Translations under genes and position numbers: made by a program
Notes under the pieces: model-generated
Database searches by the model: none
What the model saw: the letters and a program-made list of their open reading frames with translations, nothing else
What the model was told of the DNA's origin: nothing
Part shown: in pieces, positions 14,260 to 41,600 of the stretch
How positions within the stretch are numbered: position 1 is the first letter of the stretch
Layout of the letters: the number at the start of each line of letters is the position of its first letter
NCBI RefSeq assembly: GCF_003018115.1
Contig: NZ_CP027457.1
Source of the DNA: Escherichia coli
GTDB taxonomy: Bacteria; Pseudomonadota; Gammaproteobacteria; Enterobacterales; Enterobacteriaceae
DNA length: 64,000 bases
Direction: 5' to 3' (one strand)

Positions 14260-14335
14260 TGGTGCCGATAATAGGAGTCGAACCTACGACCTTCGCATTA
14301 CGAATGCGCTGCTCTACCAACTGAGCTATATCGGC
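14260..14335 (-). tRNA. thrW: tRNA-Thr (anticodon CGU)
   Basis: Reverse complement reads GCCGATATAGCTCAGTTGGTAGAGCAGCGCATTCGTAATGCG...TTCGACTCCTATTATCGGCACCA; cloverleaf with CGT anticodon and CCA end. Confidence 0.9.
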
Positions 14336-35291: not shown

Positions 35292-35444
35292 GTTATTAAC
35301 CTTCTAAAGCCTGGCGATAACACGATAATTTGCAAATCAGATATTTCCAATATCAGCATTTGTTATCAATTTATTCTGCGCTAAGGCAACTGCCTGATAA
35401 GGTGTTAAAGTTATAAAACCCTTCGCATAAAGGAGTTGTACACC

Positions 35445-36212
35445 GTGCCTGGTTTGAAGATTACGCTTTTGCAGCAACCACTGGTGTGGATGGATGGCCC
35501 TGCCAACCTGCGTCATTTTGATCGTCAACTGGAAGGTATTACCGGGCGCGATGTGATCGTTCTACCGGAGATGTTTACCAGCGGCTTTGCCATGGAAGCG
35601 GCAGCTTCGTCGCTAGCACAAGATGACGTAGTGAACTGGATGACAGCTAAGGCGCAGCAGTGCAATGCGCTGATTGCAGGCAGTGTTGCATTACAAACGG
35701 AGTCTGGTTCGGTTAACCGCTTTTTGCTGGTTGAGCCGGGCGGCACGGTACATTTTTATGATAAGCGTCATCTGTTCCGCATGGCAGATGAGCATCTACA
35801 TTATAAAGCGGGCAATGCGCGAGTGATTGTGGAATGGCGCGGCTGGCGTATTTTGCCGCTGGTGTGCTACGACTTACGTTTTCCTGTGTGGTCGCGCAAT
35901 CTCAACGATTATGACCTCGCCCTGTACGTCGCCAACTGGCCTGCTCCGCGCTCTCTGCACTGGCAGGCATTGCTGACGGCCCGCGCGATTGAGAATCAGG
36001 CGTATGTGGCGGGATGCAATCGCGTCGGCAGCGATGGCAACGGCTGCCATTATCGCGGTGACAGCCGGGTGATTAATCCACAGGGCGAGATTATCGCTAC
36101 TGCCGACGCGCATCAGGCAACGCGCATTGATGCGGAGCTGTCGATGGCGGTGTTAAGGGAATATCGCGATAAGTTTCCGGCATGGCGGGATGCGGATGAG
36201 TTTAGGTTGTAG
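35445..36212 (+). CDS. yafV: Omega-amidase / nitrilase-family hydrolase YafV
   Basis: GTG start giving [22 protein letters not shown]; carbon-nitrogen hydrolase E-K-C triad region. Confidence 0.9.
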
Positions 36213-36239
36213 TGAGTGGGTGTTGTGTTTAGGGCTGGG

Positions 36240-36680
36240 GAGAGTCGGGGAAGACTACGAAAGCCCGCTCTCCTGCGACCACTTTTATCATAGGAGTGTG
36301 GAAGTGCTTTTCCATCAATCGCGATGACGTCTTTGTCATTTGATGAATGGCAGTCACGCATCCAGTTAATAAAGCACTCGTGAAATTTTGCAGGACTGAT
36401 ACAGGATACAACTCTGGCAATGGTATCGTGAACAGGAATACCATTTTCAAAATCACCATATTGCTTCAAAAAATCGAGATGTGTTTCCCCAAAATCCTCT
36501 ATATCTTCCCAACCTTCTGCACCAGAAATAACGGCACAAATAGTCAACAGTAGAATATCCGATAATTTATGTTCCACGTTCCAGGCTTGTCTGTAATCGG
36601 GGATAACAGAAATATGTTCCATCAATTTTTTAAGTTCCATTTTGTTCTCCTTAATTATGTAAGGAGTATTTGATCCAGGG
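36240..36680 (-). mobile_element. Internally deleted ISAs1-family (H-repeat) element; encodes only first ~120 aa of transposase
   Basis: Near-identical to 37420..37860 (same antisense ORF on both copies); protein diverges after ...DKS; shared end motif ACGAAAGCCCGCTC at both elements. Confidence 0.75.
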
Positions 36681-36685
36681 CAAGA

Positions 36686-37822
36686 TTACGAAAGCCCGCT
36701 CCCCGCAAGGACTGACGCCAGATAGTTTCTGTCCATGGCTGCTTTTCGCATCTTACGTCTTAACCCTGCCTTGAATACCTTATCATTCGTCAAAATATTA
36801 ATAGCAATGTGCCGTATCCCTGAAAATAATTCCGCTGCATTTCCTCTTCTTATTCTGCAGTCGTCTTCATTCATTACCACGTCCAGGCGCCAGTGCAGCT
36901 TATTTTCCACGTGCCAGTGATTTCGGTTCGCTGTGGCGAACTTCTCTGCAGTTAAATCAGCAGAGCTGATATAATATCTGACCGTCATTTCGGGTTCTTT
37001 CTTTTGTTCTGCTATTATTGACCGAAAGGAGACTGCCACGCATAATTTCTTCAGCCCTTTCCATTCAAACGTGAAATCAATAAGTTCATCAGGGACATCG
37101 CAAACAATATGAAGACGGATTTCTTCTCTGCCGTGACTCTTTTCACTGATTGCGTAACTGTCATGCTCTGGATTATTTAATTCTTTCAGCGGAAATTTTT
37201 CCTCAAAGGCTTTATTTAGCCGCCCCTGGTTTCCTTTTACCGCGAATAAATAATCACCTCCCTGTTTTTGTATCTTCTCTGCAATATCTTTCTGGCAACC
37301 CATCGCATCAGTTGTGATGATTTTTCCTTTAATATCCAGCATGTTAAGAAGTTCTGGGATAGCTGTAATCTCATTAGATTTCTCATCCGTCCTGATCTGT
37401 CCGATGACCAGACTGTGCATTGTTGAGAACGCACTAATGACATGAATCGCTCCCCTGCGGCGACTCTTGTCATAAGAGTGCCGGAGCGTTTTTCCATCAA
37501 TTGCAATGACGTCTTTATCATCTGAAGAATGGCAGTCACGCATCCAGTTAATAAAGCACTCGTGAAATTTTGCAGGACTGATACAGGATACAACTCTGGC
37601 AATGGTATCGTGAACAGGAATACCATTTTCAAAATCACCATATTGCTTCAAAAAATCGAGATGTGTTTCCCCAAAATCCTCTATATCTTCCCAACCCTCT
37701 GCACCAGAAATGACGGCACAAATAGTCAACAGTAGAATATCTGACAATTTATGTTCTACTTTCCAGGCTTGTCTGTAATCGGGGATAATAGAAATATGTT
37801 CCATCAGTTTTTTAAGTTCCAT
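36686..37822 (-). mobile_element. ISAs1-family transposase (H-repeat-associated protein), complete
   Basis: 378 aa [60 protein letters not shown]... DDE transposase typical of Rhs-associated H-rpt. Confidence 0.9.
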
Positions 37823-38290
37823 TTTGTTCTCCTTATTTATGCAAGGAGTATTTGATCATATATAAGCTATGAAAAATAGTTTTAGGTAATAAGGAATATC
37901 TCAATTATTGAACATTTAGCGCGAATTATTTAGTACAAAAAGTGTACTTCTGATGACCTTTCCCTGCTCCAAAGTCTTCTAAAATCAACAATGTAGACTC
38001 TTAATTATATTTATCAACACAATAATCTATCCTATTACTATCTTGACAAGAGAGAACCGTTTTTTATTTAAATATATGATACACATCATTAAATATATAA
38101 CCATACTTTTTCATAAGGCAATCTAACTTAGCTCTTAAATCACCAAAACCCATCACACCATAACATCTAATAGCCATTGCCACACGTCACCATGGATTTA
38201 TTTCCACCTGCAATTACTTCGTCCTAACTTTAATTTAATCTCAAGAAGCATTAAGATCTCAATAGCGAGCTTAATACTTCTTGAATAATA

Positions 38291-38668
38291 TCACTCCTGA
38301 CCAAAATTTTTCCACACTAATGCATGAGACTTTGATTTGTCACCCAGAAATTTACTTACATCTTGCCAAAGTAAAGAATTGCTATCGGTCGCAGTGACTA
38401 TTGCCTCTATAAGCCCTGTAGCTACAACTGTGGCCAATTCATCATCAAGCGAGACCATACCATCTTCGACATGTTTAAATATTTTTTCTCTTTCAATATC
38501 CCCCATTTCATAAAAATTTTTTACAATCGTTTTTCCAACCTGAGAGAACAACATAACCACCGGTGGCGTTTCTGGATGCCAGTATTCATTAGCTAATGAG
38601 ACTGTCTCAGACAAAACAGTGGAAAATGATGCCATTTTTTCTATATAACTAGCAATATATTGGTTCAT
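38291..38668 (-). CDS. Putative Rhs immunity protein (RhsI), family unassigned
   Basis: 125 aa acidic ORF whose ATG shares one base with the Rhs stop (TAATG); AT-rich like the Rhs CT. Confidence 0.7.
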   Translation of the reverse strand: MNQYIASYIEKMASFSTVLSETVSLANEYWHPETPPVVMLFSQVGKTIVKNFYEMGDIEREKIFKHVEDGMVSLDDELATVVATGLIEAIVTATDSNSLLWQDVSKFLGDKSKSHALVWKNFGQE

Positions 38669-41600
38669 TACTTGCCTCCCAAAGCATTCTGTAAATCCTG
38701 AAGAACGTTTTCTGCTGCTGCTCGATCCCCTGGAGATGCTGTTGGATTCTTATCCAACCAATCCTGTAAAGCCCTTGTATAATCCTGTGCTTTCAATACA
38801 TGTCCTCTACCACCAACTTTTTCACCTGTGGCCAATTCATAACGAACAGCATCTGCTGTGCTTCCACTTCCTACTTTTGCATTTGGCCGATAAAGATCGT
38901 CTATAATATTTTTCAAATTTGAATCTGTAACGTCGGGTTTTCCCATTTTCTGTCGCAATTCATCTTTATACCGTTCATGCTGCATACGATCCCTTGCGCT
39001 ATTCTCATCTTCTGGTCCCCATCCTCCCGGGCTTCCCGTACTGCCGCCGGCCAGGCAGTTCTTCTCTTCATCCGTCAAATCCTTCCCAACATTCGGCTGA
39101 CTCCCTGACGAATTATCATTCTCATGTGGGCTATCTAAAGGACAACTACTGGTCCAGTAACACATTTCAGCCTGAGAATTTATTAACTGCCCATCGCTCA
39201 GAGCCTTCCCGGCACGCCCATCATTAGCGAGAAGGTCATATCCCATTGGCCCAGCGACCACAGCCATTGCTCCAAGAGCAGGGGCAGCAGACGCCATAGC
39301 CGCCGTGACTGCATCAAAAGTCGCCGCCCCACCCGAAAGTAACGCCCCCCCAAATTCTGTTCCTGTTACTGTTGTGGCAGAACCAAGAACCAGTGTCTCA
39401 CCAGACAACCCAAGAGGATCCCCCCGCTGCACCGGGTTCAGCGGATACGCATACAGGTTCCATCCCCCCTTCAGCCCAATGGGATCCTGGGTGATATAGC
39501 GTCCCTGCAACGGATCGTAGTACCGGTTCCGGTTATAGTACAGCCCCGACTCCTCATCATACTGCTGCCCCGGCAGACGGAGTGACTGTTGAAGGTGCTG
39601 CGCGCTGGTTTCGCCCAGCAGGTTTCCCCACTCGTCATACTCCCCCTGCCACGCCGTTTCCCCTTCCGGGCTGATGAGCGCCAGCGGCAGTCCCCGGTGG
39701 TCGCAGTGGTAAAGATGAAGTTTCCTCTCCGGGATGTATTCCGCCTCCAGCTGTGCGGCCATCTGCTCCGCCGTCAGCCCGCACTGCGCAAGCCATGCCT
39801 CACTCTCCGCACTCACCGCTCCCGCGCGCAGTTCCCGCTCCAGCCTCCCCAGCATCACCGACAGCTCCGCCGGTAGCGTCACACCCGTGTCCTCCTGCAA
39901 CACCTCCGCCAGGCTCCGGTGCCGCGCCTTCGCCTGTTCGCCATTCTCTGTTTCGATTCTCAGGAGCGGCGTGAAGCTCCCCGGCTGGTATACCGTCTGG
40001 ATACGCGTGGTGCCGGTCTGTATCGTCGTCAGCCTGTCACCGTCCCACCCGTACCATGTCACCTCCGGTTTACGCGACAGCGACATCCACCCCGTCAGGT
40101 CACGCTCCCGCCGCCATACCCGTTTTCCCGTCCGGCGGCCCAGCGGGTCATAGAGGTACCGGCTCTCCACCTGTGGTTCGCCGTGCTGTATCCGCGTGTA
40201 GAACACCAGGCGGTGCTGGCTGTCGTAGTGATAGTGGTGGGTGCGCTCGTCGTGCATCCGGATAACCCCTTCCGGGATACGGTCCGTCTTCTCCGCCAGC
40301 CTGCCGTATTCATCGTGGCGGTAGACATAGTGCGCATCCTCCGCGATGCGGTTATCCGGCCACGCCGTGAGCGTGCTGTCCGGGTGCAGTTCCGGGTCCG
40401 GCAGCCGGTTTCCTGCCGGGTCCGTCGCATACGGGATATCAATGTCCAGGTTCGCTGCCGTGGTGTGGACGCCCGTCAGCCTTCCCGTGCCGCTGTAACG
40501 GTACTCCCGGCTCTCCTGCGGGCCGCTGATGCGGATTAGCTGTCCGTTGTCGTTCCACGTATACTCACGGTCAAGCTGCGGAAGGTTCAGGTGCCTGCTC
40601 CGGAGCTGGCCGCTGGTATTCCAGGCGGTGGCAAGTTCATATGCCTCCCCGCCGAAGCTGCGGGCCGTCTCACGGTGCAGCCGGTCCCGCGTGTACTCGA
40701 CCAGCGGCGTTCCGCCCAGCTTCATCCCCGCAAGATAACCGCTGCCATACGTCAGCCACTCCACCGGCGGCAGACCGTCCGGCTCCTGACGGGTCGCCAG
40801 CCCCTGTTCGCTGTACGCATGCCCCGTCTCATGCTCCCACAGCATCTCCCCCGTCTCCGGGTTCTCCACCGTCTGCCGTTCGCCCGTCAGGCGGCCTTTA
40901 TCGTCATAGCCGTAGTGGACCGACACGCGGTGGCCTTCACTGGTATGGCTGAGGGTGGTTAACCACCCGTGCTCATCATACTGCCACTGCTCTGCCGGGT
41001 CGCCGTTCACCGTCCGGTGCGTGATGCGGTCCGACGCATCGTAGTGCCAGAGGGTGATAAGCCCCTCGTCTTCACTCTGCGTGAGTTTTCCGGTCAGGTC
41101 ATAGTGGTAACGTTGCGTCCGGCCGTCAAAACCGCGCTGTTCAGTCAGCCTGTCCACCGGGTCATACCGGAACGTGGACTGGCTGCCGTTCTCGTTGGTC
41201 AGCACGGTGATGCGCCCGGCAGCGTCATACCCCATGCTGCGCGTAAGACCGCCTTCCGTCACACTCACCGGACGCCCGTGTTTATCATATTCGATGGTGC
41301 TGCGTTTACCGTCCGGTGATATCGTTGCTGTCAGGTCGCCTGCGGCGCTGTACTCATAACGGATTTCACGCCCCTGCGCATCCTTCTGACTGACCAGTTG
41401 CCCACGCGGGTTATAACTGCTGTAAGTGCTGATGCCTTCCTCCCGGTGAACGGCGATTTGTTGACCGTACCAGTCATACTCATACCGCGTCGTGTACCCC
41501 GAGCAGTCCGTGAAGGCCCGAAGCTGACCGTACCGGTTTCGCGTTATTCTCCGCGTCACCCCGGTTCCGTCTTCCACCGCGCCGGGCAGGCTACTGCGGG

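Follow-up and report, generated by a model that had tools for sequence, protein, structure and literature searches.

The yafV end of the aspV-yafV island

Within the 64-kb stretch of Escherichia coli DNA analysed here (the window), the backbone gene yafV is followed by a short spacer, two head-to-tail copies of the H-repeat element ISEc1 (H-rpt), the first of them a relic, an AT-rich spacer, a small gene placed where an Rhs immunity gene would lie and the gene for a large Rhs protein (Table 1). Rhs gene, small open reading frame and ISEc1 all lie on the minus strand, the gene order of an Rhs composite. No further H-rpt copies besides these two are present in the window, and an Rfam scan of positions 35300-38800 returned no matches. 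In a scan for promoters and terminators the promoter predictions did not exceed shuffled controls.

Table 1. Features of the region between yafV and the Rhs gene, in window coordinates
Feature	Position	Strand	Basis or remark
yafV (2-oxoglutaramate amidase), backbone gene flanking the island	35436..36212	+	ORF; Pfam CN_hydrolase 3.7e-33
Spacer, yafV stop to relic, 32 bp	36213..36244	.	sequence comparison
Relic H-rpt/ISEc1, 431 bp	36245..36675	-	element positions 1-29 joined to 781-1182
Degenerate right terminus of relic, TCGGGGAAGACTACGAAAGCCCGCTCTCC	36245..36273	-	CAGGGCAAGATTACG... in the intact copy
Deletion junction, CGCTCTCC	36266..36273	.	the one copy left of the 8-bp direct repeat CGCTCCCC; overlap of the two alignments
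N-terminal 125 transposase codons of relic, DDE_Tnp_1_assoc only	36266..36640	-	ORF list; Pfam 3e-34
Intact ISEc1 (H-rpt), 1291 bp	36676..37966	-	collinear with K-12 H-rptB (L010 7235-8525)
Right inverted repeat of intact copy, CAGGGCAAGATTACGAAAG	36676..36694	-	against the left repeat 8/9, then 12/19 positions
Transposase gene, 378 aa, uninterrupted	36686..37822	-	Pfam; identity to YhhI
Left inverted repeat of intact copy (reverse complement CAGGGAAAGGTCATCAGAA)	37948..37966	-	outermost part of the non-coding 109-bp segment on the left, absent from the relic
AT-rich spacer (30% G+C), ISEc1 left end to immunity-like gene	37967..38290	.	moves with the toxin-immunity cassette
125-aa gene in Rhs immunity-gene position, directly downstream of the Rhs gene	38291..38668	-	ORF; weak Pfam DUF7674 match
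Rhs protein gene, 1501 aa	38668..43173	-	Pfam RHS_repeat, DUF6531, RHS

The yafV annotation is present in all matching genomes, and the gene ends here in TAG (36210-36212), one codon ahead of the K-12 stop. The relic starts 32 bp past this stop codon, an exact value for a distance that the earlier note on this DNA had given as within about 30 bp, and the intervening spacer is kept in island-bearing E. coli regardless of which ISAs1 element comes next. The position at which homology of the window to other genomes stops varies with the reference: 36216 against the outgroup empty site of Pseudocitrobacter vendiensis (yafV, 66 bp, then tRNA-Asp), 36202, within the last yafV codons, against island-free E. 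coli such as U12A, and 36241 against O157:H7 and TW10590, both of which carry a different ISAs1 element there. These comparisons place the junction of backbone and island at the left edge of the spacer, at 36216 in the outgroup frame and 36202 in the island-free E. coli frame. The range of about 36213..36280 proposed in the earlier note was roughly right, the comparison with island-lacking genomes that it recommended has supplied the refinement, and the yafV-side boundary is now mapped exactly in three reference frames.

The empty site, in which yafV is followed by 98 bp and then aspV, occurs in U12A and 757 E. coli genomes, as for a tRNA-linked island. The window itself stops short of aspV; a search of the whole 64-kb window with the 3' 20-mer of aspV, allowing up to three mismatches, gave no match and hence no direct repeat of the aspV 3' end at the yafV border. 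Among 5426 complete E. coli genomes the yafV site carries an H-rpt end in 86%, the relic's deletion in 20%, the tandem in 2% and the empty site in 14%; a full-length pseudogene copy and the 278-bp yafF remnant of K-12 are other states of the same insertion site. A scan of genome contigs with a degenerate YafV C-terminal pattern returned mainly unrelated MAGs; five loci were usable, and the E. coli representative was absent from the output.

An intact ISEc1 copy abutting a deleted one

Elements of the ISAs1 family have imperfect terminal inverted repeats starting CAGGG (ISfinder). Both CAGGG ends are present in the intact copy, whose termini read CAGGGCAAG... at 36676 and ...CTTTCCCTG at 37966, and which is collinear end to end with K-12 H-rptB at 96.9% nucleotide identity over all 1291 bp. 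Its transposase matches DDE_Tnp_1_assoc (PF13808, 7e-34) and DDE_Tnp_1 (PF01609, 1e-30), both in excess of the curated Pfam cut-offs, and is identical to K-12 YhhI at 373 of 378 residues; with a dN/dS of 0.08 against yhhI, the gene is under purifying selection. PGAP names this copy 'ISAs1-like element ISEc1 family transposase'. No target-site duplication was found around it, the flanks being GTATTTGATC and CTCCAAAGTC, and the join between its right terminus and the cut-back relic is precise. The missing duplication fits a rearrangement during or after insertion and leaves the identity of the element unaffected. Transposition of an H-rpt has never been observed experimentally (PMC3032704), and a mobilome-sequencing preprint contains no evidence of ISAs1 activity; mentions of ISEc1 in PMC10711316 proved to refer to ISEc12.

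The relic is homologous to its neighbor. Positions 36266-36675 align without gaps to 37448-37857 of the intact copy (384/410, 93.7%, E = 8e-180), with a stretch of 170 bp (36345-36514) that is perfectly identical; the shared end aligns at 24 of 27 positions (36247-36273 against 36678-36704), and in the window the motif ACGAAAGCCCGCTC has just two occurrences, at 36257 and 36688. Such a repeat is far beyond chance. The relic lacks 751 bp of the interior, including the entire DDE catalytic domain. In the intact copy the 8-bp sequence CGCTCCCC lies at element positions 22 and 773 (window 36697 and 37448), and it was by deletion between these two repeats that the relic lost its interior. The 109-bp left end is missing too, and the relic is left with a single, degenerate terminus that reads TCGGGG instead of CAGGG. 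The open reading frame called mechanically at 36113..36640 runs through the deletion junction into antisense yafV, and PGAP labels the relic in strain F9792 'ISAs1 family transposase, incomplete'. The relic is an immobile, dead copy.

Much of what the earlier note had read from the letters is borne out by these alignments: a complete 378-aa transposase gene at 36686..37822, a second, internally deleted copy, near-identical 5' regions and a common end motif. Its measurements required correction, as the short copy comprises 431 bp and 125 codons in place of about 440 bp and about 120 codons, and the intact element reaches 37966 where it had been taken to end at about 37860. The description of the short copy as missing its interior alone does not hold, the left end being absent as well.

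Age of the relic and competing explanations

Of the 5426 complete E. coli genomes, 1100 have the deletion junction, each at a single place or at most two (median 1), and it adjoins yafV in every E. coli case inspected. The identical junction lies beside yafV in Escherichia sp. E1V33, E. whittamii and Escherichia sp. MOD1-EC7003. A single fixed site, and the same junction at yafV in other Escherichia species, show that the relic is old and vertically inherited at one chromosomal position, rather than mobile. In E1V33 it is preserved in a complete 540-bp form with a CCCTG left end, around which no target-site duplication was found, and its open reading frame there starts with GTG and is broken by a stop codon. 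Further strains have a relic cut by IS1, IS256/IS3 or ICE DNA, and in some E. coli strains, as well as in other species of Escherichia, the relic is present without the intact copy. The deleted copy can be regarded as a genus-level molecular fossil, usable for typing the locus.

The N-terminal reading frame of the relic is open in the window and has accumulated few non-synonymous changes (dN/dS 0.09-0.19), with 0 non-synonymous and 5 synonymous differences from NCTC122 and a dN/dS of 0.19 against E1V33. Such a pattern could mean that some constraint remains and that the frame is not simply decaying; conversion by functional copies of the gene would explain it equally well and is in keeping with the 170 bp of perfect identity.

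The junction between relic and intact copy was traced with a 44-bp query that is matched by the true junction alone; an 80-bp query was discarded, as it fuses pieces of ordinary tandem H-rpts, such as those of K-12 RhsC, into one place. The junction is present in 115 complete genomes, once in each, and these genomes carry differing Rhs toxin-immunity cassettes: the cassette of the window, a SEL1-like cassette, or an IS1 deletion reaching aspV. The tandem predates the cassettes.

Several other explanations of the pair have to be weighed. The earlier note had raised the possibility that the short copy acts as a non-autonomous element, which would make it a miniature, MITE-like ISEc1 derivative mobilised in trans by the intact transposase. 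The relic is indeed an internal-deletion derivative with an intact transposase gene adjacent, and the E1V33 form has both ends; yet the window copy has lost the left end with its inverted repeat and terminates in TCGGGG, the complete form has no flanking target-site duplication, and the junction occurs at no more than two places per genome in the 1100 genomes, lies beside yafV in every case inspected, and is shared by three other Escherichia species. Miniature elements keep both inverted repeats and are present in multiple dispersed copies, and the relic shows neither feature. We do not uphold the claim and regard this reading as highly improbable. That the tandem arose as a partial duplication of one H-rpt, by slippage or unequal crossing-over, so that the copies are recent paralogues, is very unlikely, even though they are direct, head-to-tail and abutting and share the identical 170 bp. 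They differ at 26 of 410 positions (dS 0.26), the relic is nearer to other copies (95.1-95.4%) than to its neighbor, it is found where the intact copy is absent, and an internal position of one copy meets the exact terminus of the other, a join that homologous misalignment does not yield.

It is somewhat less far-fetched, but still unlikely, that the relic has been retained for an expressed 125-codon fragment that, by analogy with truncated transposase inhibitors of other insertion sequences, might act in trans as a regulator or inhibitor of ISEc1 transposition. The reading frame is open, has a Shine-Dalgarno sequence, begins 46 bp downstream of the stop codon of the intact gene and encodes a complete Pfam domain; orthologous relics show few non-synonymous changes, and a similar K-12 fragment is annotated as YbfQ. 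The E1V33 orthologue, however, has no ATG and contains a stop; E. whittamii, B2 strains, PCN061 and CUVET21-1780 carry relics whose N-terminal portion is missing or disrupted; the Shine-Dalgarno sequence sits in a hairpin; and the low dN/dS is accounted for by gene conversion. Finally, repeated insertion sequences often cause misassembly, but the exact 44-bp junction recurs in 115 independently assembled complete genomes and F9792 matches the 2.4-kb region at 100% identity, so that an assembly artefact is scarcely credible. The explanation that we prefer, and to which as a whole we assign a probability of about 0.85, is that this DNA forms the yafV-side end of the E. coli aspV-yafV T6SS/Rhs island, with two head-to-tail ISEc1 copies.

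Cassette exchange and known Rhs loci

The variable 3' tip of the Rhs gene extends, in the identity profile, to about 39550, and the product of the 125-aa gene downstream of it is WP_001077738.1 in F9792 and PKF8. From about 37850-37990 to about 39550 the window shows 0-2 differences per 100 bp from PKF8, where the block lies at the yafV locus with a different H-rpt state, and from cS108a, where it lies at the RhsE locus; this shared block is bordered by 2-8% divergence in the H-rpt and by up to 43% in the Rhs core. Against NCTC122, differences climb from about 37300 onward, within the intact copy. In these three pairwise comparisons, then, the breakpoints of cassette identity lie within the intact H-rpt or at its border. 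The suggestion of the earlier note that the short copy is a recombination substrate for swapping of Rhs C-terminal regions is partly supported by these breakpoints, which implicate the H-rpt in general rather than the relic itself. That PKF8 derives by deletion from a tandem of the window type was considered and rejected, since the right end in PKF8 has substitutions of the K-12 yafF type.

These data have led us to propose a history in which the intact copy would have transposed into the relic at a point 109 bp short of its left end, after which that end and the old cassette would have been lost, either by homologous recombination in the Rhs core (of the cointegrate-resolution type) or by later cassette replacement. 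We only infer the transposition, since the intact copy has no target-site duplication. The pair would have been passive since, with H-rpt and Rhs core as two homology arms between which C-terminal toxin/immunity cassettes may be swapped from strain to strain and from one Rhs locus to another; the relic would have no function of its own. The sequence in which these steps (insertion, removal of the left end of the relic, swapping of cassettes) took place is a tentative one. More generally, and tentatively, ISEc1/H-rpt may be a conserved distal homology arm, and at times a transposition vehicle, that moves Rhs cassettes between strains and loci, the yafV relic having been kept since before the Escherichia species diverged owing to its anchor position. 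Cassette movement is suggested by the occurrence of the same cassette at the yafV and RhsE loci, and the H-rpt as a source of distal homology in Rhs cassette exchange is a suggestion that can be tested. The homology arms are deduced from the three pairwise comparisons, not from population-wide breakpoints.

Passages of Jackson et al. (2009, PMC2935791) on Rhs C-terminal displacement and orphan toxin-immunity modules describe variable tips and immunity cassettes downstream of a conserved core, exchanged by recombination; a term search within that paper returned no text that ties Rhs exchange to an insertion sequence. The cassette arrangement of the window is the same as that of these modules, with the distal breakpoints here in or at the H-rpt. 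In the O-antigen cluster of Salmonella group D2 an H-repeat remnant lies at a recombination junction, for which transposition with homologous recombination on the other side has been proposed (PMC3715488); there too the end of an H-repeat marks the join of DNA of two origins, and the model also fits a precise insertion-sequence end that has no target-site duplication. The two cases differ in that O-antigen genes, not Rhs, are involved and the remnant alone remains in Salmonella.

Descriptions of H-repeats, of the defective and tandem forms among them and of their link to Rhs loci go back to the 1990s, and the NCBI pipeline already annotates both copies in more than 100 genomes; the two-copy arrangement is an ordinary feature of an Rhs toxin locus and carries little weight as a discovery. 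ISEc1 is the H-repeat (H-rptB, gene yhhI) of K-12 RhsB, of the ISAs1 family, which the window copy resembles in its 1291-bp collinearity and in its position downstream of an Rhs gene and a small downstream open reading frame, an order also seen in K-12 RhsC. Unlike the RhsB element, the window copy lies at the aspV-yafV T6SS island, has no target-site duplication and abuts another H-rpt. Tandem H-rpts at K-12 RhsC (ybfQ, ybfL, ybfD) are likewise head-to-tail and abutting, with truncated or internally deleted copies that meet the exact terminus of a neighbor; they number three, have other truncation points, and none has the 751-bp deletion between CGCTCCCC repeats. The K-12 yafF pseudogene occupies the same insertion site as the relic, its right end about 30 bp beyond the yafV stop, and keeps 278 bp of the right (C-terminal) part, the rest and most of the island being lost, whereas the window relic keeps the right terminus and the N-terminal 410 bp with its internal deletion. 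The yafF remnant is the 'H-rpt min.5' of the Hill laboratory's work.

Tandem H-repeats beside yafV

The window is E. coli DNA: 35900-38300 matches strain F9792 with 100% identity, and fadE, ivy and yafV follow the order of the K-12 5-minute region reversed. Beyond the 3' end of yafV lie a short H-rpt, a full H-rpt, a 125-aa ORF and an Rhs gene, all on the minus strand: an ordinary, already annotated ISEc1 pair on the known border of an Rhs/T6SS island. The window contains a single tRNA gene, tRNA-Thr (CGT; 14260-14335, minus strand); aspV, the opposite island border, lies past the window end.

Features at the yafV border of the Rhs/T6SS island
Feature	Position	Strand	Remarks
yafV	35436-36212	+	island-flanking gene
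Relic H-rpt	36245-36675	-	431 bp; ORF starting in relic carries DDE_Tnp_1_assoc only
Intact ISEc1/H-rpt	36676-37966	-	1291 bp aligned to K-12 H-rptB (yhhI element), 96.9% identity
Transposase ORF, 378 aa	36686..37822	-	DDE_Tnp_1_assoc and DDE_Tnp_1 domains
125-aa ORF, immunity-like	38291-38668	-	adjoins Rhs gene
Rhs gene, 1501 aa	38668-43173	-	RHS repeats and DUF6531 domain

An ungapped alignment pairs 36266-36675 with 37448-37857 (384/410 identical, E = 8e-180), 36247-36273 matches 36678-36704 at 24 of 27 positions, and ACGAAAGCCCGCTC occurs in the window at two sites only, 36257 and 36688. Together with the domain content, these matches confirm the earlier note's observation of two H-repeat copies, one internally deleted, sharing an end motif; its extents needed adjustment, as alignment to K-12 H-rptB carries the intact copy to 37966, ~106 bp past the ~37860 proposed. 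No additional H-rpt copies were found within the 64-kb window.

The two relic-to-intact alignments overlap at 36266-36273 (CGCTCTCC), and CGCTCCCC is present exactly twice in the intact copy, at element positions 22 and 773, indicating that a deletion between these 8-bp direct repeats cost the relic 751 bp of its interior and, with it, the entire catalytic domain. The relic ends at 36675 (…TTTGATC), lacking the final 109 bp of the left end, and its right terminus reads TCGGGG versus CAGGG. Since the intact-copy right inverted repeat begins at 36676, the two elements abut with zero bases between them. K-12 RhsC likewise carries head-to-tail H-rpts, with a truncated copy fused to its neighbour's exact terminus. 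In both copies a hairpin, CTCCTTA...TAAGGAG (36647-36666 and 37829-37848), lets the transposase Shine-Dalgarno pair with a complementary stretch upstream; such hairpins curb translation of read-through transcripts in other insertion sequences. A promoter-like site is predicted across the junction (36654-36683, minus strand; 9/12 matches, 18-bp spacing), with -35 TTGCCC in the intact-copy right end and -10 CATAAT in the relic leader; such sites are no commoner in the region than in shuffled sequence.

The intact copy has termini CAGGGCAAG... and ...CTTTCCCTG, which agree at 8 of the outermost 9 positions and at 12 of the outermost 19, and comparison of its flanks, GTATTTGATC and CTCCAAAGTC, revealed no target-site duplication. 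Its transposase is identical to YhhI at 373 of 378 residues with a dN/dS of 0.08, so the gene has evolved under purifying selection, and the intact copy may be autonomous as an insertion sequence; no H-rpt transposition has been reported (PMC3032704). The last ~100 bp of the ISEc1 left end (37876-37966) diverge by 14-30% between copies, versus 0-8% for the coding region.

Island boundary and the yafV 3' end

The boundary, placed by the earlier note at 36213-36280, proved approximately right, as three reference frames agree on it to within 40 bp. Homology to the island-free outgroup Pseudocitrobacter vendiensis (yafV, 66 bp, tRNA-Asp) stops at 36216, just beyond the stop codons; the flank that the window has in common with O157:H7 and TW10590, strains carrying ISEc26 at this site, extends to 36241; and island-free E. 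coli of the U12A type (757 genomes; yafV, 98 bp, aspV) diverge at 36202, because the last three yafV codons differ (EFTFR* versus EFRL*). The aspV-proximal hairpin of the U12A-class spacer is similar to the Pseudocitrobacter spacer, so that, from this likeness, the class seems to represent an empty site of ancestral type. A search for an aspV-derived repeat at the yafV border of the island found none.

The window yafV stop is TAG (36210-36212), one codon ahead of the K-12 TGG-TGA (region 36203-36215). U12A-class genomes, ending in EFTFR*, share just 84-89% identity across the last ~100 bp of yafV, and the outgroup YafV ends in EFRLG*. By these comparisons the yafV 3' end is dimorphic in step with island presence or absence. 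A degenerate DNA pattern for a 10-residue YafV C-terminal peptide has matches in numerous Bacteroidales, Muribaculaceae and Gammaproteobacteria MAGs (L018-L050), suggesting that the motif is widely conserved within the amidase family; these genome-contig matches did not include the E. coli species representative.

Age and immobility of the relic

The relic deletion junction (71-bp probe) is present in 1100 of 5426 complete E. coli genomes, at a median of one and a maximum of two places per genome, adjoining yafV in all cases inspected, and the identical junction lies beside yafV in three other Escherichia species. By this distribution the relic is an old inherited fossil, confined to a single site and immobile. 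The same distribution excludes a miniature mobile element for the window copy, and with the left 109 bp missing and a TCGGGG right terminus, the earlier suggestion of a non-autonomous element was rejected. Escherichia sp. E1V33 has a complete 540-bp relic that keeps its CCCTG left end, with no target-site duplication found at its flanks; the relic ORF there starts with GTG and is broken by an internal stop. The relic breaks off at the position equivalent to 36461 in E. whittamii and some B2 strains, cut immediately past the deletion junction in Escherichia sp. MOD1-EC7003, and interrupted by IS1, IS256/IS3 or ICE-like DNA in other E. coli. That the N-terminal fragment serves as a regulator is very improbable: the relic ORF is intact in the window with few non-synonymous changes, but other lineages have it as a pseudogene or have lost it, and the hairpin encloses its ribosome-binding site.

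An H-rpt right end occupies the yafV position in 4646 of 5426 genomes. At the same insertion site EC21Z-014 and 19KM1831 carry a full-length H-rpt that is a pseudogene, PKF8 carries an intact one, and K-12 retains a 278-bp right-end remnant, annotated yafF. In S1-CAM-04-C (L006 6089-9247), a group II intron (ltrA) lies inside one H-rpt of a three-copy array beside yafV.

When the relic/intact junction was probed with 44 bp centred on it, 115 genomes matched once each, and such recurrence in independent genomes contradicts an assembly artefact. A recent partial duplication is likewise contradicted: 26 of 410 positions separate the two copies (dS 0.26), other H-rpt copies are closer to the relic than its intact neighbour is, and relics occur without a neighbouring copy. 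Judged by this divergence, the window copies are not recent duplicates. Of the 26 mismatches, 16 fall within 36271-36344 (74 bp), followed by 170 identical bases (36345-36514), a mosaic that suggests gene conversion, either between the tandem copies or with others.

Proposed cassette exchange at the H-repeats

The tandem is accompanied by the window's cassette in F9792 and an O169:H41 strain, by a SEL1-like immunity gene and a different Rhs tip in NCTC122 and an ST361 strain (the distal H-rpt being a pseudogene in both), and by an IS1-mediated deletion extending to aspV in ECCWS199. Because the 115 genomes vary beyond the intact copy, the tandem predates the present cassettes. F9792 and the O169:H41 strain are the closest genomes over the H-rpt region; a deletion there fuses the Rhs 3' part to tssM/icmF, whereas the window keeps the whole 1501-aa Rhs gene and the intervening T6SS genes (window 39535-63516 compared with F9792 and 2014EL-1345-2).

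A block from ~37850-37990 to ~39550, comprising the H-rpt left end, spacer, immunity-like gene and Rhs tip, shows 0-2 differences per 100 bp from PKF8, where it neighbours a single K-12 yafF-type H-rpt at the yafV locus, and equally from cS108a, where it lies at a different locus, RhsE, beside pptA. Outside the block, the H-rpt diverges by 2-8% and the Rhs core by up to 43% per 100 bp. Relative to NCTC122, near-identity runs from yafV to ~37300, with divergence beyond, within the intact copy. At the sequence level, these comparisons show the H-rpt serving as shared homology, and the breakpoints fit cassette exchange via homologous recombination between the Rhs core and the H-rpt. The earlier proposal of a recombination substrate for Rhs tip exchange is thus plausible for the H-rpt in general, from breakpoints in or at it, and the interpretation in the earlier note is partly supported as a whole.

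For the tandem itself, we infer a route in which an H-rpt on incoming DNA would transpose into the relic, the product then being resolved through recombination in the Rhs core. Such events would be expected to join an exact right terminus to a truncated relic, to remove the relic's left end and to yield no target-site duplication. A model of transposition with resolution by recombination has been proposed for the H-repeat remnant of the Salmonella D2 O-antigen cluster (PMC3715488).

In the cS108a comparison, 37876-37966 behaves like the rest of the exchanged cassette block. Strain 746 is entirely without 37942-38215, and within the AT-rich spacer a 109-bp indel (38043-38151) separates the window from the cS108a cassette at RhsE, which is near-identical in other respects.
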